Source: a virus
Taxonomy: Duplodnaviria > Heunggongvirae > Uroviricota > Caudoviricetes
Virus record (IMG/VR): IMGVR_UViG_3300029686_000222
Coordinates: 1-36,195 of that record
Strand: one strand, 5' to 3'
DNA: 36,195 nucleotides
Shown here: piece after piece, positions 1 to 15,632 of the stretch
How the letters are laid out: each line of letters begins with the position of its first letter
Numbering within the stretch: position 1 is the first letter of the stretch
Notes under the pieces: generated by a model
Databases searched by the model: none
Told to the model about the DNA's origin: nothing
Seen by the model: only the letters and a program-made list of their open reading frames with translations
Translations under genes and position numbers: made by a program

Positions 1-1206
1 ATGTTTGATCCCCAAAAGGTAAATGAAAATAAAGAGGCATTTTTTCTGTATGTGAATGCCAGTGGTGAACTTTCTGCACAAAGTGTTATCAGGGTTGTAG
101 AGAGAGAAGGATTTGTTCAAGGGTATTCTTTGAGTCGTCGTGGTTTTAGGACTTTTCGTAAAGATAGAATCTTGCGAATGTTTGATTCAGAAGCTGCCCT
201 TAATGAGGCTTTTAATGCATGGAATGATGAACCGCCTCTGACTTCCAGTGATTATATTCCTCCCAAGCAATCCACGTCGAAAAACAAATTCTCTATTTGC
301 TTTACTGGGTTTAAACAATCAGATAGGGCGCGGTTAACAGAAATAGCCGTTAATAATAATTTTGATGTGAAAATGGATGTTTCAAAATCGTTATTCATTC
401 TTTGTGTTGGCGATAATAAGGGATGGAGAAAGGTTCAAAAGGCTAACGATTACGGTGCACTTATTCTGAGCGAAGGACAATTCCTGAGTTTTATAGATAC
501 TGGAGAAATACCTTATAAATCTGAAGATATTGGTGATGCTTATCAACAAAATATAGAAAAGGATGTTGAAGCTTGGCAACGTATGGTTGAAGAGTTTTCT
601 TTAACTGTTCGTACGGTGCGGGAACCAAGGCGAAGCACTGCGCTTATAGCAAATTTTTCTGATGGTTTTGCTGTTGGTTGGCGTTTCGCTGTGAAGGAGG
701 TCTTTAAAGAGGCGCTTGATATAAGGCTGACAAAGGTTACTTATGGTGATTACATTTATGAGGTTTGGACGCAAGGTTCCTCTTACCAGTTTCACCAAGG
801 AGATGTATTTTATAGTGACCGTAGTGGTTATGGTTCTTACTCTGAATTTCTACAAAGAGATGATGCAGTTGTCTTACAGGTAAAATATGAATGTTTTTCT
901 GGTTACGATACTGTTTCCTTGTTTGATGGTTCCTTTAGCGGTGAGCTTTCAGTTAATGGGCGCATAGAACCTCGCATTGTTGAGCGTCTTCCTGTTTTAG
1001 TTGAAAGTCAAACCTATGACCCCGGAAAAATTATTGTGGATGTTTTTATCCCCAATGAAAAAAGAAATAAATTAAAATTGTTTGGTGAGTTGTCGATGAA
1101 CCAAGATGATTTTATTTATCTTTTGCAATCCGGATGTTATTGGCAAAAGAAAAAAGGGGAGCGTCCAGAATTGATAAATATTTTCGATGCTATAAAGAAT
1201 ATGTGA
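1..1206 (+). CDS. WYL-domain + BRCT-domain protein with an uncharacterised ~200-aa C-terminal domain (401 aa); possibly N-terminally truncated by the window edge
   Basis: ORF starts at base 1. N-terminus has a WYL-like signature (GFVQGYSLSRRGFRTFRKDRI, resembling the WYL...R-x-FRldRI core). Residues ~95-165 (FSICFTGFKQSDRARLTEIAVNNNFDVKMDVSKSLFILCVGDNKGWRKVQKANDYGALILSEGQF) match the BRCT fold pattern seen in LigA-type BRCT domains. Markedly AT-rich compared with the prophage. Followed by an intrinsic terminator. Confidence 0.6.
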   Translation: MFDPQKVNENKEAFFLYVNASGELSAQSVIRVVEREGFVQGYSLSRRGFRTFRKDRILRMFDSEAALNEAFNAWNDEPPLTSSDYIPPKQSTSKNKFSICFTGFKQSDRARLTEIAVNNNFDVKMDVSKSLFILCVGDNKGWRKVQKANDYGALILSEGQFLSFIDTGEIPYKSEDIGDAYQQNIEKDVEAWQRMVEEFSLTVRTVREPRRSTALIANFSDGFAVGWRFAVKEVFKEALDIRLTKVTYGDYIYEVWTQGSSYQFHQGDVFYSDRSGYGSYSEFLQRDDAVVLQVKYECFSGYDTVSLFDGSFSGELSVNGRIEPRIVERLPVLVESQTYDPGKIIVDVFIPNEKRNKLKLFGELSMNQDDFIYLLQSGCYWQKKKGERPELINIFDAIKNM

Positions 1207-1239
1207 ATTACATCATTGTGAGTGGTCCCAAAAAGAAAA

Positions 1240-1271
1240 CTCGCAGTTTTTACGCTGCGAGTTTCTGCTTT
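1240..1271 (+). terminator. Rho-independent terminator downstream of the WYL-BRCT gene
   Basis: Perfect 7-bp stem CTCGCAG / CTGCGAG with 8-nt loop, followed by TTTCTGCTTT. Confidence 0.6.
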
Positions 1272-1316
1272 GGGATGTGTATAGGGTGCCTTATCAGTCT
1301 TGCCCTGACAACCGAT

Positions 1317-1338
1317 TGACGGGGGATTGCTCCCCCGT
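1317..1338 (-). other. Stem-loop immediately 3' of the hok-like ORF (candidate hok mRNA 3'-terminal hairpin)
   Basis: GACGGGGG-attgct-CCCCCGTC, 8-bp GC-rich perfect stem, 12 nt downstream of the hok-like stop on the minus strand. Confidence 0.3.
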
Positions 1339-1349
1339 CGCGGTTTCCT

Positions 1350-1490
1350 TACTGCTTACACTGTAAGAACGCCGCAAACTCCGCTCCCCAGAAACTCATC
1401 CGTATCTCACACAGCGAACCGTGCAGCATCCAGATGATGAGGATTGCCGTTACGCAGAACGTAATGGCCGTAAGCGATTTTTGCGACATA
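1350..1490 (-). CDS. Hok/Gef-family type I toxin (46 aa): MSQKSLTAITFCVTAILIIWMLHGSLCEIRMSFWGAEFAAFLQCKQ
   Basis: Hand-translated from the minus strand; not in the ORF track because it is shorter than 60 aa. Single N-terminal TM helix, conserved SLCEIR and AAFLxCK motifs shared with HokA/HokB/Gef. AAGGAG Shine-Dalgarno 9 nt upstream of the ATG. Confidence 0.8.
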
Positions 1491-1699
1491 GCGCTTGCTC
1501 CTTTTTCAGGGAGGCGCTAACCTATCACTTGTCTAGGGTAGATGGTTAGGGCCTCGGTTAAACAAAAATGTTTTCCGGGGCCTTTCCACATCCGGCCTTC
1601 AGGTATTCCCTCCAGCCATCAGCCGAAAGGCACCCGCGCGAATTCTAGCCTGGTTTTTTCCCTTGTTTCAATCCGTTGAGGCCTGTCAGCCTTTTGATA

Positions 1700-1777
1700 T
1701 AAAATTCCCGACCGCAGACATTATTCAGTCACGCATTTGATACATGCTTCCGCCGGCGTTCGCGCCGGTTTTTTTTG
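1700..1777 (+). ncRNA. Candidate Sok-like antisense RNA, opposite the hok mRNA leader; 5' end undefined
   Basis: Inferred from hok/sok architecture: a plus-strand intrinsic terminator at 1751-1777 sits upstream (in minus-strand sense) of the hok ORF, where the antisense RNA normally lies. Promoter not confidently identified. Confidence 0.3.
1751..1777 (+). terminator. Rho-independent terminator (plus strand), likely 3' end of the antisense RNA of the hok-like locus
   Basis: CCGGCG-ttcg-CGCCGG stem-loop followed by an 8-T run. Confidence 0.55.
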
Positions 1778-2007
1778 TCCTGTTGCTGCGTAGATCGTCA
1801 TGTGCGATCGATGCGCTGTATTGATCCTTTTTTCAGTTTAATTTTGACTCTTAATTTTACGCAGGCCGCGCCGCGTCTGGCTTCGTTGTTTGACGATTTT
1901 TTGATGCGATCCTTTCGTGATCGTGTCTCATCTCACGTAAAGCATGAAAACTCTTTTAATATCATACAGTTTTATTGCTCCTGCCATTTATGGGATCGTA
2001 AAAACCT

Positions 2008-2200
2008 CTCTGAAAACTGAAAAAAATTTCAAAGCGTGAAATTTCAGATCTTCGCTTTTCCCTCAGTTGCTGCGCGGGCTGGCGGTCATTTTTGCACGGC
2101 AGAAAACTGAAAAAGTGTTTCGACACGAAACCCGCGGGTTGGAGGGGGTAGCGCGGTTTACGTCACCTCACGCTTTACGTCACTCCGTTTACGCGGTGTG
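2008..2200. repeat. Cluster of short direct and inverted repeats in the non-coding gap between the hok-like locus and the prophage tail operon
   Basis: Two copies of GAAAACTGAAAAA, each followed by a small inverted repeat (AAATTTCA..TGAAATTT; GTTTCG..CGAAAC); then three direct copies of TTTACG(T/C) within GCGGTTTACGTCACCTCACGCTTTACGTCACTCCGTTTACGCGG. Confidence 0.3.
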
Positions 2201-2250
2201 TGCATACAGCGCCAGAATGGCACGCAGAACGCATTAATCAGGTGGTGGAT

Positions 2251-2279
2251 AGGAAAACGCACGGCCGGGACCGTGCGTT
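2251..2279 (-). terminator. Candidate terminator of the tail operon (minus strand)
   Basis: ACGCACGG-ccggga-CCGTGCGT hairpin about 40 bp beyond the spike-gene stop, followed on the minus strand by TTTCCT. Confidence 0.4.
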
Positions 2280-2317
2280 GCGTGATGGGGCGTTTATGTG
2301 GCTTTTATGTCTGGTGT

Positions 2318-4015
2318 TCAGGCGATAATGTCGCCGTATTTTTCGCGCAGACTCGTCGCCTGCAGGGCATCTGCGGCAAGTTCGCCGCTGTTCATTGGCG
2401 TGCCTGTGTTGCTATGGGTGTGGTTTGCTGTATGTGTGGCCAGCAATTGAATCAGATCCAGAATATCGATCAGCAACGTCAGCAGGTTAAGCCCGGACTT
2501 TTCCCGCGAGCCGCCGCGACCAATAAATACTGTCGGGGAGGTAAACTCCAGACCGCCGTCCGCCCTGCATGTTCTGCGGCCTCCCACGTTTTCGGTGAGG
2601 TCATGCTCAATGGTGGATATCGCCCCTTTGAGTTGAGTCAGCAAATCCTGCGCTACCATCTGGATATGCTCACCGGCTGCGATCGCATAATTGCCGGTAG
2701 TAAGGTGTTCTGTCTGGCCTGTCATCAGCTTACTGGTGCCAAGAACACTGGTTATGTCGTTTGCCTGGACTGTTGTTGTTCTGGTTGTTGTTGTGCGTTC
2801 TTCCTGATCGCTGTTAATGGTTCGCCTGGCTGAATGCTCCCTGATTTGCTGGTCAGTTTCTCTGTGCCAGCTTCCGTCAGTCGTGACGCGCTGAAACACT
2901 TCTGCGCGCTGTTGCTGCAGTTGTTCGCCGGGCTTTACATCAGGCAGGTTATGGCCCGCGGGTAAGATTTGCCTGATGACAGGTTTATCCGGTCGCCCTT
3001 CAATGTTGGATATTTCCACGATGGTGCCTGCCGGCGGGTAGGCAAAACATCCCGCCTCGCTACCTGCCATCGGGACGGGGAGTGGTACTGCCGGATAAAC
3101 AGGCGTATCGCTTTTATCGTTGCCGTTCTCATCAAGCAGTTGCACATCGACGGCGTAGCGTGGGCGGAAGCTGTCGGCAATATCGCCTAGGGTGACGGAT
3201 TCCGTTGGGGCAATGACGCGCGCCAGCCGGGTATGCAGAGTGCCGCTGGCCAGTTCCGGGAACTGTGTTTCCATCTGTCTGCGTAATGGTGATTTGGAAA
3301 CAGGGCTACCCGTGGCGGTAAGGCGTTCCCATGTCAGGGTCATTTTCTCGTTGTTGAGGGCTACACGGGTAATGCGCCCGGCCGGAAGGTTCACGCCCGG
3401 CCGCACAGTTTCCATAAACATGATGTCGATGCTGTTTCCGCCGCTTTGCCCGAGTGTGTACTGTTGCGGAATATCCGGCATGGTAATACTGGCAAACCGT
3501 GAATCCGGTGCGCTTCCCACAAATACGGAACCGTCCGGCATTGGATGCCAGACGTAATCGCTGATACTGAATGCTCGCCCCAGCTGGCTGAGCAGTTGTG
3601 CTCCGCTGCCGCTGTGGGTGATGTAAGGTGTCGGTGTGCTGACGTAATCCGCATCTGGCGTGATGAAAACGATGCCGCTTTGTTTACCCAGATTATCGAG
3701 TACATCCCGTAACGTTGGATGTTGCATGGAGCAGGGGAAATCAAAATCCAGCACGGCAGCTGCTTCACGGATAAAAAGGCGGCGTGAGCCATTTTCGGCG
3801 GGTTGATCGCGCTCAATGTAGCCGGAGAAATAGCGCCATGCCTCACCATTACGGCCGAGATCAATTTGTATCATTGCGCCGGCAAGGCTTTTTTCCGGTG
3901 ACAGATTATTAACAGAAATGAAGCCGCGACCGGCAGCATTCAGGGTAAGGACAAGGCTGATATCGGCAATTTCCGCCAGCTCGCCATTAATCATGCAACG
4001 TTGGATTAATTTCAT
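2318..4015 (-). CDS. Large central tail spike / hub-spike protein (gpV/VgrG-like), 565 aa
   Basis: Last gene of the tail operon, ATGA-coupled to the upstream gene, AGAGGAAGGG RBS. Internal motif PPAGTIVEISNIEGRPDKPVIRQ resembles the gpV/gp5 OB-fold signature; C-terminal HTANHTHSNTGTPMNSGEL resembles the HxH apex of P2 gpV. The ~320-aa N-terminal domain is of unknown type. Confidence 0.6.
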   Translation of the reverse strand: MKLIQRCMINGELAEIADISLVLTLNAAGRGFISVNNLSPEKSLAGAMIQIDLGRNGEAWRYFSGYIERDQPAENGSRRLFIREAAAVLDFDFPCSMQHPTLRDVLDNLGKQSGIVFITPDADYVSTPTPYITHSGSGAQLLSQLGRAFSISDYVWHPMPDGSVFVGSAPDSRFASITMPDIPQQYTLGQSGGNSIDIMFMETVRPGVNLPAGRITRVALNNEKMTLTWERLTATGSPVSKSPLRRQMETQFPELASGTLHTRLARVIAPTESVTLGDIADSFRPRYAVDVQLLDENGNDKSDTPVYPAVPLPVPMAGSEAGCFAYPPAGTIVEISNIEGRPDKPVIRQILPAGHNLPDVKPGEQLQQQRAEVFQRVTTDGSWHRETDQQIREHSARRTINSDQEERTTTTRTTTVQANDITSVLGTSKLMTGQTEHLTTGNYAIAAGEHIQMVAQDLLTQLKGAISTIEHDLTENVGGRRTCRADGGLEFTSPTVFIGRGGSREKSGLNLLTLLIDILDLIQLLATHTANHTHSNTGTPMNSGELAADALQATSLREKYGDIIA

Positions 4016-4587
4016 GTTTTCCCTTCCTCTTTCACGCTCCCGATGCCAATCCAGTCCAGCCCGGAGCCAATACCATCATTGATGTTTTTCCAGAAAGTCT
4101 CCTGGGTATTCATTCCTTTATCCGGTGCCTGCTCACTGCCGTTCTGTGTCTGCTGCTTTGCGATTGTTTTCTGTGAGCCACTGCGTGCCGATGCTTTTTC
4201 CGGCACGCTTAATTTTTCCCTGAGAGTAAAGGTGACCTGCCAGTGCATCTTGCCCTGTTGTTCCGTTGCATCAATACCGCCCGAAAAAACACCCTGTCGC
4301 ATATTAATCGCCTTAGCAGTAGCGTTGGCGATGCGGTATGTTTTTTTAGCCCCGTTGCTTTCTGTGGCTTCTGCAAGCTGAAATATACGGGTCAGAACAG
4401 CTTCATCATTAAAATCAATGACGCCTGATACACGCAGCTCTTTAGCCTTGCTTCCCTGCTGGGCACTGGTGGTGCTGGTTGACTGTCCGGACATATCTTT
4501 ATCCGGTAGTTGCATGGTGGCGCTGACGATGATGTTGCGTAACAGAATGGCTTCCCCGTCAAGTGCAAGAACGATCATCTGGGTCAT
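4012..4587 (-). CDS. Hypothetical tail-operon protein (191 aa), function unknown
   Basis: ORF overlapping both neighbours in the tail operon; no motif recognised. Start could be the ATG at 4587 or at 4578. Confidence 0.5.
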   Translation of the reverse strand: MTQMIVLALDGEAILLRNIIVSATMQLPDKDMSGQSTSTTSAQQGSKAKELRVSGVIDFNDEAVLTRIFQLAEATESNGAKKTYRIANATAKAINMRQGVFSGGIDATEQQGKMHWQVTFTLREKLSVPEKASARSGSQKTIAKQQTQNGSEQAPDKGMNTQETFWKNINDGIGSGLDWIGIGSVKEEGKT

Positions 4588-5281
4588 GTAGTGATTCTCT
4601 TAGTGATGAAAGATCATTACCGACAAACAGCATCACAGCTGTAAAAACCCATTCCGGATGTGGAATATTTTTTTTTATCAGTGCTGCAACCTGATTTAGC
4701 GTGCCCGTATAAAAAAAACGCCACACCGGACATGTGTTTTTCTGAATTGCGGCCTGCTGGTCGGTGATTTCCTGTAGTGCCTTATCTCTCGCGATTCTGA
4801 ATTGATTCAGAGACGAGGATAATGTTTCCGGAGATACAGCGGTCGGGATCGCAGCCTGCGCAATAGTCGCTGCCCGCGTCATGCTGCGGGTGGTTTGTGT
4901 GGACAGCGTGACTTCTGCAGGAAGTGTGGTTGCCGGTTTTGCAGGGAGCTGCATTTTACTCACGGCCAGCGAAAGCTGGCTGGAGATCATGCGGGACATT
5001 CTTCCCACTTCCGGCAATGGAAGTGCACCTGAAAACTGTCTGGCCAGTGATAAAAACTCGCCAGCAGACGGGGCGCAAAATAACAGCGCCACAACATCTT
5101 TTTCAGTGCTTTCTGTCAGATAAGGTAAAAGCGCGGATACAGCATTATCCGGGCTGAGGTAACGCCCTGATGGTGTAATGTTTCCCGTATTTTCTGACCA
5201 TGGATGGAGACAAACCATTGAACAGGTGATGGCCATGGGGGCCGGGCGCAGAATGGCGTGCTCCCATACAGAATATTTCAT
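4559..5281 (-). CDS. Hypothetical tail-operon protein (~240 aa), directly downstream of the second tail-fiber gene
   Basis: ORF 4559-5302 in the track; the first ATG with an AGGA RBS is at 5281 (the 5302 codon is TTG). No recognised motif. Confidence 0.5.
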   Translation of the reverse strand: MKYSVWEHAILRPAPMAITCSMVCLHPWSENTGNITPSGRYLSPDNAVSALLPYLTESTEKDVVALLFCAPSAGEFLSLARQFSGALPLPEVGRMSRMISSQLSLAVSKMQLPAKPATTLPAEVTLSTQTTRSMTRAATIAQAAIPTAVSPETLSSSLNQFRIARDKALQEITDQQAAIQKNTCPVWRFFYTGTLNQVAALIKKNIPHPEWVFTAVMLFVGNDLSSLRESLHDPDDRSCT

Positions 5282-5305
5282 CTCATTTTCCTGTACGTTC
5301 AAATG

Positions 5306-7834
5306 TTACCCCATTCCGTTCTGACGCAACGTTGTCCCTGCAAGTGTTTTTATAACCACAACACAGGGGAGCAGCCCATTATCTGCGCCGGCAACTTCTT
5401 CCAGTGTTGACATATCCAGTGCATAGTGAGGTTTATCAGGCATCACCACCTGTATTCCGATAGTGATTGTTCCCGCATTTGCAGAGACAGAGCTGACAAA
5501 ATACTGCGCTGAAATGTACTGTCGGTTCTGGTTCTGATAGAGATAACGCGGCTCAATCTGCGCTGAAACAGCGATTCCGATATCGCCAACCGAGGATTGC
5601 CCGATGGGGTTTGATACATCCAGCTTCAGGGGATAAACACGCGAACCATCGGGCAGGCTTTTAAATGAATCCAGACTGGAGTTCAGGGTGCTTACGAGCA
5701 TTTTTGGGATGATCGGGTGAGCGCCATCAACAAACAGAGATTCTGATTGTTTTTTTAATAAATTTGTAGCAGCAGAAGAAACTGCAGGTACAAAGTTTCT
5801 GTACCATGTTTGCGTGGTTGCATTGTACGTAAATGTAACGCTTTTCCCTGCAAATAACGCTTCCGGAGCATCTGAAACCTGTGCATCCTGTGTAAGAAAT
5901 GATGTTCGCGTCACGTCCCTCTTCGCCGTGACTGACAGGTGACAACCATCAACCAGCCCTGGTGCTATCCTGAACTGGAGATATGAAAGTGCAGAGTCAT
6001 TATCAATAAACAATACGGTGTCATTGGTGAGTTTATCCACAACCACCTGGGCGTTATTGACGGGGGTAATGTGTCTGATCTCTCTTTCCGGAAAGACAAT
6101 ATCTTCACCTCCAACAACGGAGCGACCATTAATTCGCATAAAGTCGCGTGTACTCATGCAGGGGACTGCACCCCACGCTGAAACAGACATTGCTGATGCA
6201 ATATCTGAAATTGTTACGGCGGCCGTTTTTCGGATCTGCAGACGACGAAGGGCTGTTGTTGCGGCAGTCTGTGAGGCCGTAACTTTTGCCACGAATGCAA
6301 AAAAGTCGCTCATGGCGAAAGTATCAATGCCTGCGTAATCCGATGTAAATAAATCAGGATAATCTTTCTGGATGGCATCCAGAACGGATAGTCCATATTG
6401 TACCTGTTCAGCAGGTGTATCCAGCACACCAAAACGCCACGGAGCAACAGAGAAACGGTCTTTTTGCACAAAACGAGCATCGCCCGGGGTATCGGGGTAA
6501 TCAGCTTCATTGTAATACGTCTTGAATCTGTTCTGGCCCGGAACAAATAATGCCAGCAACCCTGTTTTAATTGTTTTCATTGCGTTGGAATATTGCGAGG
6601 CGGCATCAGAGTCATTAACCAGTCCGGCCAGAAAGACCAGGGCCCGTAAACCGGCATACACTTCGGCATTATCCTGACAAAAACATTGCGCGTAATGAGT
6701 ATTACCGGGAGCAACGTTTCCCTGAAAGACGTTTACCAGATTTGCACCAGTATTTAGCTGACGCAAAATATTATTTTCCGCTACCAGTCTGATAATTTCC
6801 CATCTGGAATGATTGCCGAGCCCTGAAGGGGCCTGTAACCACGAAGCGTCTGCGATTTCAGCAATACAGGCAAACCAGAGGGATGGGTAACTGTCTGTAG
6901 AATCAGGGGCAACCGGTGAATATAAATCAGCGGCCACATCGGTAAAGAACCATGACCATGATGACGGGATCTCTTTGCTGGTCTTCCCGAGACATTCAAG
7001 AACAGCAGAGCCTGTATAAATAAACTCACCTTGTGAGATGCTACTGATATCAGGTGTGGTTTCTCCGGAAATGCCGGCGATATTTACAAAAAAGAGCGTG
7101 CTGTTAATCATCACGCGCTGTCCGGCTTCATAACGGAAATTCGTCATGAATGGCGCTGTTATACCGAGACGAAAGGCTTTTTCACAAATAACGATTCTGT
7201 CCCTGAGAGAAAAGGCCTTGCCTTCGCTTTCATACATTGCAAGAAACAAAAAATACCAGTTAATACCCCCGGTTGAATTAAGATAACGCCAGAGCCCTGA
7301 ATAACGCCCGTGGGTTATTTGCATGGACAAAAACTGCTTATTAGCTTCGGTGACCGCATAACGGGTTGATACTGCTATGTGATCGCTGATAAAGCCCTGA
7401 ATTGTTTTCATCTCCTGCGAGATGTCTGTTTGCCAGCTTTCAGGAGGAACAGTAATGTGTGCAGCCTGAGCCAGGCCGCTGTAAATGACAGCAAAATTGC
7501 GGATGAGTGTTTCGCCGGCCAGTTTGTGGCGAACCGGGGTTTTAATTACACCGCACAGTGTGTTGCTGGGTTGATGGACCAGGCAAATCCAGTCATAAGT
7601 GAATGTCTCGTTATCAGCAACAACGGCACTACAGACAATGCTGTTTGGATCCAGTTTTCCATAGTGCAGATTATTTACCGTGTGTGTGATTTTTTCTGGA
7701 GGGACAACTTCATCATCTCTGGATGGTTCCCTTTCCATCAGTGCAAAAACAATGGAGTCAGGTCGCGCCGGTAAATTACTGGCGGCGCATTCAGCAACCC
7801 ATTTCTCAAATGCTTTCGTCAACAGCGCGCTCAT
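5306..7834 (-). CDS. Second tail fiber / tailspike protein (842 aa), N-terminal anchor domain paralogous to the upstream fiber
   Basis: N-terminal ~150 aa align with the 567-aa fiber (shared motifs PARPD, LIRNFA/LIRTFA, W-Q spacing); large divergent C-terminal region. TAATG overlap with the assembly gene. Confidence 0.7.
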   Translation of the reverse strand: MSALLTKAFEKWVAECAASNLPARPDSIVFALMEREPSRDDEVVPPEKITHTVNNLHYGKLDPNSIVCSAVVADNETFTYDWICLVHQPSNTLCGVIKTPVRHKLAGETLIRNFAVIYSGLAQAAHITVPPESWQTDISQEMKTIQGFISDHIAVSTRYAVTEANKQFLSMQITHGRYSGLWRYLNSTGGINWYFLFLAMYESEGKAFSLRDRIVICEKAFRLGITAPFMTNFRYEAGQRVMINSTLFFVNIAGISGETTPDISSISQGEFIYTGSAVLECLGKTSKEIPSSWSWFFTDVAADLYSPVAPDSTDSYPSLWFACIAEIADASWLQAPSGLGNHSRWEIIRLVAENNILRQLNTGANLVNVFQGNVAPGNTHYAQCFCQDNAEVYAGLRALVFLAGLVNDSDAASQYSNAMKTIKTGLLALFVPGQNRFKTYYNEADYPDTPGDARFVQKDRFSVAPWRFGVLDTPAEQVQYGLSVLDAIQKDYPDLFTSDYAGIDTFAMSDFFAFVAKVTASQTAATTALRRLQIRKTAAVTISDIASAMSVSAWGAVPCMSTRDFMRINGRSVVGGEDIVFPEREIRHITPVNNAQVVVDKLTNDTVLFIDNDSALSYLQFRIAPGLVDGCHLSVTAKRDVTRTSFLTQDAQVSDAPEALFAGKSVTFTYNATTQTWYRNFVPAVSSAATNLLKKQSESLFVDGAHPIIPKMLVSTLNSSLDSFKSLPDGSRVYPLKLDVSNPIGQSSVGDIGIAVSAQIEPRYLYQNQNRQYISAQYFVSSVSANAGTITIGIQVVMPDKPHYALDMSTLEEVAGADNGLLPCVVVIKTLAGTTLRQNGMG

Positions 7835-15226: not shown

Positions 15227-15330
15227 TTTTGCTCCTTACGGGGTTGTTGAGGTTTACGCAACCAGCGCCACAACGCCCGGATAATTTTCCAGACAATGGC
15301 AGCGGCTTTCTGATCCCTGCGGGACTGCAT
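15223..15330 (-). CDS. Small cationic amphipathic peptide (35 aa): MQSRRDQKAAAIVWKIIRALWRWLRKPQQPRKEQK; candidate lysis accessory peptide
   Basis: Hand-translated; not in the ORF track. GAGGAG RBS 8 nt upstream; its TGA overlaps the endolysin ATG. Sits between holin and endolysin. Confidence 0.4.
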   Translation of the reverse strand: MQSRRDQKAAAIVWKIIRALWRWLRKPQQPRKEQK

Positions 15331-15335
15331 TGCGG

Positions 15336-15632
15336 TTACTCCTCTTTGTTCTCTTTTTCGTCCAGCTTCCGGCGCATGTGGCGCAGGAAGATTTCCACAA
15401 TCTGGTAACCGGCAACGCCCATTGCGGTACCTGCGCCGGCAATGGCCAGTGGGTCAAGGTTCGGGTAGCGAACCAGCAGGGCGGCGGCAGAAACACCCAG
15501 CGCGCTCCCCAGCAGGGTTCGGCCCACAAACAACCGCAACGTAATCGGTTCTGCGCCAGCCAGCACCCGACTTGCGGCAGCGATTCCGCCCAGAATGCCC
15601 AGGGTGATGATGGTGCGTTCATGCTCCTGCAT
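15336..15632 (-). CDS. Holin (98 aa, three predicted TM helices, charged C-terminus)
   Basis: Three hydrophobic segments (IITLGILGGIAAASRVLAG; LFVGRTLLGSALGVSAAALLV; LAIAGAGTAMGVAGYQIVEIF) and a KLDEKENKEE tail; adjacent to the endolysin. Confidence 0.7.
   Translation of the reverse strand: MQEHERTIITLGILGGIAAASRVLAGAEPITLRLFVGRTLLGSALGVSAAALLVRYPNLDPLAIAGAGTAMGVAGYQIVEIFLRHMRRKLDEKENKEE

Follow-up and report, generated by a model that had tools for sequence, protein, structure and literature searches.

The last three genes of the tail operon in a prophage of 36,195 nt (the whole stretch of DNA analysed here, hereafter the window) pose the question whether genes placed behind the tail fibres, close to the attachment site, encode ordinary tail parts or, as the first-pass annotation had considered for one or more of them, cargo. 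Three overlapping genes of 240, 191 and 565 aa were indeed confirmed by their ORF coordinates (Table 1), by PHROG and Pfam matches and by homologues. The PHROG E-values (1.8e-233 for the 565-aa protein against phrog_2258, "baseplate protein"; 1.3e-64 and 3e-100 for the other two), the match of the 191-aa protein to Pfam PF25759 (E = 1.8e-53) and homologues numbering in the hundreds mark the three ORFs as real genes rather than chance. For gene 1 the most likely start is the ATG at 5281, in frame and yielding 240 aa, since AGGAAA lies 5–6 nt upstream and the product shares 100% identity with P0121, an E. coli protein of 240 aa; from the stop of the preceding 842-aa fibre gene (5306) to this start there are 24 nt. 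The same 29-nt overlap between genes 1 and 2 appears in the annotation of E. coli AJ1. Translational coupling, suggested by these overlaps, would suit a fixed stoichiometry, and from the overlaps we infer that the trio is co-translated. We rejected programmed frameshifting from gene 1 into gene 2: a database protein (P0299) fuses both, yet nothing in the window points beyond an ordinary overlap.

Table 1. Coordinates of the trio and of the genes downstream of it
Feature	Position	Strand	Remarks
Gene 1, 240 aa	4559..5281	-	orthologue of HP1 orf33 (by sequence comparison); TTG-start ORF reaches 5302 (247 aa)
Gene 2, 191 aa	4012..4587	-	orthologue of HP1 orf34 (by sequence comparison); Pfam PF25759
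Gene 3, 565 aa	2318..4015	-	orthologue of HP1 orf35 (by sequence comparison); predicted fused hub and spike
ATGA stop/start overlap of genes 2 and 3	4012..4015	-	GAGGAAGGG upstream; sequence read directly
29-nt overlap of gene 1 end and gene 2 start	4559..4587	-	sequence read directly
hok/gef toxin gene	1489..1349		cargo, downstream of the trio
BRCT-domain protein gene	1..1206		low GC (0.39); cargo, downstream of the trio

The whole window is a prophage of the HP1 subgroup of Peduoviridae (P2 family), with the gene order of HP1. Its annotation contains, in HP1/P2-family order, L, R, S, sheath, HP1-Orf24 tube, endolysin, tail assembly chaperone and tape measure, and further DUF2590 (W-like), J, I, fibre and fibre chaperone, as well as capsid, terminase, portal, GPA replication protein, Cox and integrase genes. 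The trio is located directly 3' of the fibre and fibre-assembly genes and comprises the last late genes before cos/att. When this position was matched against the HP1 map and against ESSI-2, phiO18P and phi3, the HP1-type order (sheath, tube, lysis, chaperone, tape measure, W, J, I, H, G, then the trio) fitted. As judged by sequence comparison, genes 1, 2 and 3 are the orthologues of orf33, orf34 and orf35 of Haemophilus phage HP1 (Hpunavirus, Peduoviridae), with BLASTP E-values of 3e-22, 2e-38 and 4e-130 and identities of 28, 46 and, over the full length of the 565-aa protein, 38%; the HP1 proteins measure 258, 187 and 533 aa. Megablast of the 3-kb region against phage DNA records gave no match, and relatives were found solely by tblastn. 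In HP1, ESSI-2 and phiO18P the module has the same three genes, the same order and the same place before cos/att, with hub and spike fused, as published for the gpD and gpV homologues of HP1 (PMC10612066), while in phi3 and in the Pseudoalteromonas phage ACA1 the hub and spike of the same module are separate ORFs. Apart from identities of only 28–46%, the window differs from HP1 by a second fibre gene before the trio and by the hok/gef and BRCT-domain genes after it.

The trio thus consists of ordinary tail parts and not imported cargo, since the tail genes of HP1-type prophages end with these three as a rule: they are the hub-and-spike genes of the lineage in their customary order, and a fused hub-spike was already known for HP1. 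The first-pass annotation had called a hub and spike behind the fibres unusual, and this is correct relative to P2 and Mu, but the arrangement is canonical across the HP1 subgroup (HP1 orf31–orf35, ESSI-2, phiO18P, phi3), and the tail operon of P2 likewise has U and D at its end, beside attP. The P2 tail is the same machine with the same roles to fill, but its V gene opens an operon of its own, upstream of W-J-I-H-G, and hub (D) and spike (V) are made as two proteins; in Mu, too, hub (gp44) and spike (gp45) are two proteins, and their genes come ahead of those for wedge and fibres. Across the window annotation we found no second hub, spike, tube-initiator or LysM gene, and separate gpD, gpV, gpU or gpX genes were absent.

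If the 240-aa gene, the 191-aa gene or both were non-structural att-proximal morons, for example for lysogenic conversion or defence, this would agree with the lack of a solved-structure relative for either small protein, with a site close to the cos/att end, where the hok/gef and BRCT-domain genes do sit, and with the absence of the orf34 homologue from the proteins detected in ACA1 virions (PMC10612066). However, the genes keep the same slot between fibre and hub-spike genes, and the trio its order, in phages of Haemophilus, Aeromonas, Pseudomonas and Cronobacter (HP1, ESSI-2, phiO18P and phi3 were compared), and the ACA1 gene table lists the trio in the same order (PMC10612066). The products of the first and third genes moreover have counterparts in ACA1 virions, where mass spectrometry detected the orf33 orthologue gp46 (2 spectra) and gpD-like and gpV-like proteins (PMC10612066). 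Both small genes overlap flanking structural genes, the GC content of the trio (0.49–0.55) is like that of the rest of the prophage, as opposed to 0.39 in the neighbouring BRCT-domain gene, and the trio matched no PADLOC defence family. A tail deprived of the two small proteins would also have no candidate for tube initiator or glue. A patchy distribution is usual for cargo genes; the trio was present in every HP1-type genome examined and did not qualify as morons. The minus strand within 2318–5400 showed no promoter-like site, and an Rfam scan of 1–5400 for Sok-type or other RNA returned nothing at the gathering threshold. Since the order is conserved across distant hosts, the GC content typical and no defence family matched, the cargo reading of the trio is unsupported, and for the two small genes we consider it highly improbable. 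The att-proximal moron slot that had been expected does exist, but downstream of the trio: the actual cargo slot is just beyond the hub-spike gene and holds the hok/gef and BRCT-domain genes.

As described in the first-pass annotation, only the 565-aa protein has recognisable features, and the other two lack obvious ones at the sequence level. It is predicted to consist of a gp27/gpD-like hub (residues ~1–260), an OB-fold (~262–352), a spike shaft and an apex with H532-x-H534. In the AF2 model, pLDDT was 80–95 over residues 1–250, 52–77 across the OB region and 30–50 in the C-terminal 200 residues, the latter as expected when a trimeric shaft is modelled as a monomer. Foldseek of the full-length model against the PDB returned AlgoCIS, Pvc8, VgrG and Afp8 (E = 2.5e-17 to 1e-12); the alignments to VgrG-type spikes cover the OB region, where the model has the intermediate pLDDT given above. 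The first ~300 residues matched the hubs Mu gp44, the MuSo2 43-kDa protein, phiTE, E217, pyocin R2 and T4 gp27 (1wru, 3cdd, 9cuy_X, 8eon_E, 6u5h_A and 1k28_D; E = 1e-12 to 1e-4), with target-normalised TM-scores of up to 0.60. On the predicted structure, the N-terminal ~300 residues therefore belong to the gp27-type fold, and the suspected VgrG-like fusion of a hub to the spike was borne out. Among the Mu proteins, the hub fold matched 1wru, 3cdd and 9ki1_G at E ~1e-10 and the spike 9ki1_V matched at E = 1.5e-3.

The gpV-like OB-fold motif noted earlier is real, though below threshold by sequence. Residues ~311–369 aligned to the OB domain of VgrG1 (E = 0.22), Phage_base_V (PF04717) gave E = 0.023 with 15.5 bits against a cut-off of 23.8 bits, and a match to Gp5_trimer_C was below threshold. 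PDB sequence searches with the three proteins yielded only a weak VgrG OB-domain match; remaining PDB matches (NDUEG3, TraT and others) were dismissed as noise. The motif P-x-x-G-x-x-V-x-(6)-G-R-P-D-K-P was invariant or nearly so in the homologues. H532-T-H534, which had also been pointed out, is present in all 26 homologues compared (48–86% identity) and is followed by ~30 residues predicted to form a helix. In the trimers of P2 gpV and phi92 gp138, such an H-x-H apex motif coordinates iron. The C-terminal "HTHKHPG...TGSP" of P2 gpV resembles the H-x-H of the 565-aa protein, whereas the helix after the motif is unlike gpV. No sequence similarity of the 565-aa protein to P2 gpD or gpV was detectable, hhalign included; the hub fold of the P2 gpD/gp27 type was reached by Foldseek via the hubs of Mu, pyocin R2 and T4.

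VgrG, Pvc8, Afp8 and Alg8 have the same order within one chain, namely a gp27-like hub, a gp5-type OB-fold and a trimeric shaft. In contrast to these proteins, the C-terminal part predicted for the 565-aa protein contains some helix and has an H-x-H apex, while in VgrG-type proteins a PAAR protein caps a long beta-helix of the gp5 type. The scores against the type VI models TIGR01646 (E = 3e-4, 19.8 bits, cut-off 121.8) and TIGR03361 (15.9 bits, cut-off 186.35) were far below those required for membership. The 565-aa protein is thus VgrG-like in its working but lies outside the T6SS family, and its gene is situated within a prophage tail operon.

The 191-aa protein belongs to PF25759 (HP1_ORF34, "baseplate complex protein") and phrog_1398, and its family comprises 350 representative clusters. 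The alignments show a conserved core of ~130 aa, then a polar linker that varies and, at the C-terminus, a helix-like segment that is again conserved. It is most likely a tube initiator analogous to gpU, one of the inner-baseplate parts of P2 (gpD x3, gpU x6, gpX x6, gpV x3; P2 structure preprint). An orf34 homologue gave an HHpred hint to Pfam PF06995 (P2 gpU), labelled "uncertain" by the authors (PMC10612066). PF06995 matched none of the 29 members of the family that we scanned, and an NCBIfam scan of the 191-aa protein gave no match. A HMMER profile cross-search of the family against gpU reached at best E = 0.018 in one sequence and was not considered meaningful, and two HMMER profiles of gene 2 returned nothing beyond chance matches from the PDB. 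With hhalign, gene 2 was compared with the single P2 gpU and with a 10-member gpU alignment, using profiles of 121–132 members from an exhaustive representative search; none of these comparisons reached significance. The 121-sequence profile aligned with the 10-sequence gpU profile collinearly but non-significantly (P ~0.2). The same set-up misses gene 3 against P2 gpD and gpV, and because this positive control fails, the negatives are uninformative and no evidence against homology.

Alternatively, the tube might dock straight on the VgrG-like hub. The 191-aa protein would then be some other part of the baseplate, for instance a glue like gpX, and the 240-aa protein might be the initiator or unrelated. 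In the T6SS, fused VgrG-type hubs take the Hcp tube ring directly, and the VgrG fold match of the 565-aa protein as well as the non-significant gpU similarity would fit such a design. However, the solved phage and extracellular contractile baseplates (P2, Mu, pyocin, and PVC and AFP with their fused spikes) all contain an initiator ring. The size of the 191-aa protein and its core, flexible linker and C-terminal segment parallel the description of gpU (P2 preprint), and the published HHpred match of the orf34 homologue also points to gpU (PMC10612066). We therefore regard direct docking as unlikely and retain the 191-aa protein as the candidate initiator.

The 240-aa protein evolves fastest of the three by identity to HP1, with E ~5e-7 to the Aeromonas and Pseudomonas versions. 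With a profile of its family, the gene is recovered at the corresponding place in ESSI-2, HP1, phi3 and phiO18P. It matched phrog_31292 and phrog_1677, both labelled "unknown function", and an NCBIfam scan gave one chance-level match only (Cas6/Cmx6, E = 0.078). The AF2 model (pLDDT 75, pTM 0.74) found no structural neighbour in the PDB or BFVD using Foldseek. P2 has no counterpart of this protein. The first-pass annotation had allowed for a complete but rearranged tail module; hub and spike map cleanly, the 191-aa protein is a candidate for gpU, and none of the standard tail families accommodates the 240-aa protein. We consider it a lineage-specific tail or baseplate protein.

It could also be an assembly factor, either a fibre chaperone or adaptor or a factor for hub assembly, and not a permanent part of the virion. 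The gene directly follows the second fibre gene of 842 aa, which lacks a chaperone of its own, and both its fast evolution and the very weak signal of the orf33 orthologue in the distantly related phage ACA1 (PMC10612066) are compatible with such a role. Nevertheless, this orthologue was detected in purified virions (PMC10612066), and domain scans of the 240-aa protein revealed no Caudo_TAP or other chaperone domain. The gene is furthermore kept whatever the fibre set: HP1 has one fibre with a chaperone, the trio of E. coli AJ1 is preceded by a different fibre and a DUF4376 protein, and in ACA1 the receptor-binding protein is diversified by a DGR (PMC10612066). A specific chaperone of the 842-aa fibre was rejected on account of this presence regardless of the preceding fibre set, and an assembly factor in general seems quite improbable.

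The three proteins very probably form the inner-baseplate (hub) module of an HP1-subgroup contractile tail of the P2 family. The 565-aa protein would most likely be trimeric, its N-terminal gp27/gpD-like part providing a central hub for the assembly of the tube and of the W-, J- and I-like wedges, whose genes lie upstream. The spike that pierces the membrane would consist of its OB-fold and C-terminal shaft, and, like those of P2 gpV, the H-x-H motifs of three chains may coordinate a metal ion at the tip. The 191-aa protein would most likely initiate the tube between the hub and the first tube ring, the role of gpU in P2. The 240-aa protein would be a low-copy, lineage-specific virion component; as the window encodes no LysM protein, it may fill the glue or adaptor role that the LysM protein gpX holds in P2.

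Structure and literature searches found no baseplate structure from the HP1 subgroup. Tentatively, its inner baseplate could be built unlike any solved contractile tail, with a fused hub-spike, a diverged PF25759 initiator and a 240-aa protein of neighbourless fold that replaces the gpX glue or acts as trigger or ripcord. If this possibility, which we rate as less likely than not, is true, the 240-aa protein represents a new class of baseplate component.

In E. coli RefSeq the three proteins are labelled "hypothetical protein", "baseplate complex protein" and "type VI secretion system Vgr family protein", the last being the PGAP name of a 90%-identical homologue of the 565-aa protein. This label is misleading, and a VgrG-like match in such a prophage tail operon is no sign of a secretion system; the trio is better read as an HP1-type tail hub-spike module. 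Morons in HP1-type phages should accordingly be sought in the cargo slot after the hub-spike gene, where hok/gef and variable genes are located, and not inside the trio.

Three consecutive open reading frames on the minus strand, proposed by the first-pass annotation to end the tail operon, were found at exactly the coordinates it gave, and their large homologous families indicate that they are real genes. An in-frame ATG at 5281 is the most likely start of gene 1, as judged from the sequence, and would yield a protein of 240 aa; AGGAAA lies 5–6 nt upstream of this codon, and the product is 100% identical to a 240-aa E. coli database protein (P0121). The start is located 24 nt past the stop of an 842-aa fibre gene. 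Reading of the sequence further revealed an overlap of 29 nt between genes 1 and 2 and an ATGA overlap, preceded by GAGGAAGGG, between genes 2 and 3. From these overlaps, the trio would be translationally coupled.

From end to end, the window is a prophage of the P2 family, HP1 subgroup. It contains an integrase, Cox and a GPA replication protein, portal and large terminase genes on the strand opposite to the late operon, a P2-type capsid, tail genes (gpL, gpR, gpS, sheath, HP1-Orf24 tube, M15 endolysin, tail assembly chaperone and tape measure), baseplate genes (DUF2590, which is W-like, J and I), and finally a fibre, a fibre chaperone, a second fibre and the trio. The gene order is the same as in Haemophilus phage HP1, in which the final five genes, orf31 (fibre), orf32 (fibre assembly), orf33, orf34 and orf35, are succeeded by cosR, with attP and int after it. 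On sequence similarity, the 240-, 191- and 565-aa proteins are orthologues of HP1 orf33 (28% identity, E 3e-22), orf34 (46%, E 2e-38) and orf35 (38% over the full length, E 4e-130), respectively. Profiles of the three families located the trio in unchanged order in Cronobacter phage ESSI-2, Aeromonas phage phiO18P and Pseudomonas phage phi3. E. coli prophages in about 48 complete genomes are 90–93% identical to the trio region, and partial matches occur in more than 1000.

Coordinates and annotation of the trio (from the ORF listing) and of other genes in the window
Feature	Position	Strand	Remarks
Gene 1 ORF	5302..4559	minus	
Gene 2 ORF	4587..4012	minus	
Gene 3 ORF	4015..2318	minus	
Second tail-fibre gene, 842 aa	5306-7834	minus	tail-collar N-terminal domain; weak match to MGH1-like glycoside hydrolase domain (E 0.003)
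122-aa ORF	15254-15622	minus	between tube gene and M15 endolysin gene
Hok/Gef toxin gene, 46 aa	1489..1349	minus	Pfam HOK_GEF (E 4e-7); ~830 nt downstream of hub-spike gene
BRCT-domain protein, 401 aa	1-1206	plus	Pfam E 3.4e-4; phrog_36782; DNA-ligase-like PHROG matches

The 565-aa protein had been suspected to carry a fused N-terminal hub as in VgrG, and this is supported by an AlphaFold2 model based on 26 homologues, with a predicted VgrG-type hub-spike fold. Confidence was high at residues 1–250 (pLDDT 80–95), moderate in the OB-fold region and poor in the C-terminal third, as would be expected when a trimeric shaft is modelled as a monomer. In Foldseek searches against the PDB, the full-length matches were fused hub-spike proteins, namely AlgoCIS 7aef_q (2.5e-17), PVC Pvc8, AFP Afp8 and several T6SS VgrGs, while phage hubs (Mu gp44, the MuSo2 43-kDa protein, phiTE, E217, Pa193, pyocin R2 and T4 gp27) matched over only about 300 residues; the Mu spike was a weaker match. 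The OB-fold motif at residues ~311–369 aligned to the VgrG1 OB domain, Pfam Phage_base_V and TIGR01646, all below threshold. H532-x-H534 is invariant across the family and resembles the C-terminal 'HTHKHPG...TGSP' of P2 gpV. The H-x-H of gpV and phi92 gp138 binds iron in the trimer. About 30 residues, predicted to be helical, follow the apex motif in the 565-aa protein (window 2318-2420), whereas gpV ends about 12 residues past its HTH. As tblastn matches to ESSI-2-type phages end at residue 499, variation within the protein is greatest in the region of the spike tip.

Fusion of hub and spike is already known in HP1-type phages. It was found in HP1, ESSI-2, phiO18P and the window prophage, while the two are separate ORFs in phi3 (4782-6652) and in phage ACA1 (gp48/gp49; PMC10612066), so that the HP1 subgroup is not uniform in its fusion state. 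The phi3 record lacks annotation for the orf33-like ORF and the hub ORF, and it gives the orf34 homologue the wrong label 'nucleoid DNA-binding protein'. According to the model, the 565-aa protein is predicted to act like VgrG without belonging to the T6SS family. Its scores lie far below the cut-offs of that family, so that the name which a close homologue bears in RefSeq, 'type VI secretion system Vgr family protein', misleads.

Pfam places the 191-aa protein in PF25759, 'HP1 ORF34 baseplate complex protein' (E 1.8e-53), a family for which an exhaustive profile search returned 350 representative clusters. Alignments showed a conserved core (~130 residues) joined through a polar, variable linker to a C-terminal segment that is again conserved, a layout similar to that of the P2 tube initiator gpU, in which a core and a flexible stretch are followed by a C-terminal helix touching the wedge (P2 structure preprint). 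For the ACA1 orthologue, which was not detected in virions, an HHpred match to PF06995 (P2 gpU) with 15% identity was reported and homology was called uncertain (PMC10612066). We found no PF06995 match among the 29 members of the family that were scanned. Comparing a 121-sequence profile of the family with a 10-sequence gpU profile, hhalign gave a collinear alignment with P ~0.2; this negative is uninformative, since the same procedure misses the 565-aa family against P2 gpD/gpV despite its clear fold link to the hub class. P2, Mu, pyocin, PVC and AFP particles all possess an initiator ring that sits between the hub and the tube, and no other candidate was found encoded in the window; the 191-aa protein is therefore probably the tube initiator.

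The 240-aa protein is the fastest-evolving of the trio. It matched only PHROG families of unknown function, gave no match in Pfam, NCBIfam and PADLOC scans, and no sequence relative was found in the PDB. AlphaFold2 modelled it with reasonable confidence (pLDDT 75, pTM 0.74) as a mixed alpha/beta domain containing one long helix (151–180) and a disordered loop (~105–123); Foldseek against PDB and BFVD returned no neighbour (best probability 0.05). An orf33-type gene is present in every HP1-type genome examined, whichever fibre genes precede it. In a database representative, P0299 (397 aa), the C-terminal half of an orf33-like protein runs in frame into an entire orf34-like protein; this single case may reflect a real fusion or an error of gene calling or sequencing, and, if real, hints that the 240- and 191-aa proteins act together. 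The ACA1 orthologue, gp46, was seen in purified virions, by only 2 spectra (PMC10612066). While the 240-aa protein could possibly be an assembly factor, we infer that it is a low-copy, lineage-specific baseplate component. As such it may replace gpX, the LysM glue protein, for which the window has no gene. A more novel reading, in which the inner baseplate is built differently and the orf33 family provides a new class of baseplate component, is conceivable, but rather unlikely.

Because operon ends near att often carry morons, one or more of the trio had also been considered as possible cargo. The evidence speaks against this idea: the trio is conserved and syntenic in the HP1-type genomes examined, its genes overlap, and its GC content (0.49–0.55) is like that of the prophage (~0.52; first kilobase of the window, 0.39). 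No minus-strand promoter-like site was found within 2318-5400, and no member gave a defence-family match in a PADLOC scan. An att-proximal cargo slot does exist, past the hub-spike gene. In two E. coli prophages at different chromosomal sites an identical Hok/Gef protein adjoins the orf35 homologue; the toxin gene therefore travels with the phage, as prophage cargo at the cos/att end. A search for a Sok-type RNA gave no Rfam match at the gathering threshold. The BRCT-domain gene (GC 0.39), whose product weakly matches the candidate defence system PDC-S48 in PADLOC (E 1.7e-5), may be a variable cargo or defence gene; related E. coli prophages carry other genes at its position, and phi3 has a HicAB pair in the cargo position past its hub-spike genes.

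The slot of the 842-aa fibre, a gene lacking a chaperone gene of its own, holds a 430-aa fibre and a DUF4376 protein in E. coli AJ1 and is degraded in strain CP131, and thus looks like a swappable receptor-binding cassette. The 122-aa ORF had no PHROG or Pfam match and is probably a holin, as the HP1 holin occupies that position.

The position of the trio after the fibres had been called unusual, a view not supported here. The order indeed differs from P2, with V-W-J-I-H-G and a separate FI-FII-E-T-U-D operon, and from Mu, where hub and spike are ahead of the wedges; however, it is the same as in HP1, and the P2 tail genes likewise end with U and D, beside attP. In P2 terms, the HP1 layout places the W-J-I-H-G block between T and U, attaches V to the C-terminal end of D, and adds a further gene, orf33, ahead of U. 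Such a layout has been documented ever since HP1 was sequenced, and the split between the HP1 and P2 subgroups has been treated previously (PMC2771037; PMC10612066). The observation itself was thus correct, and the trio is an ordinary, already described module.
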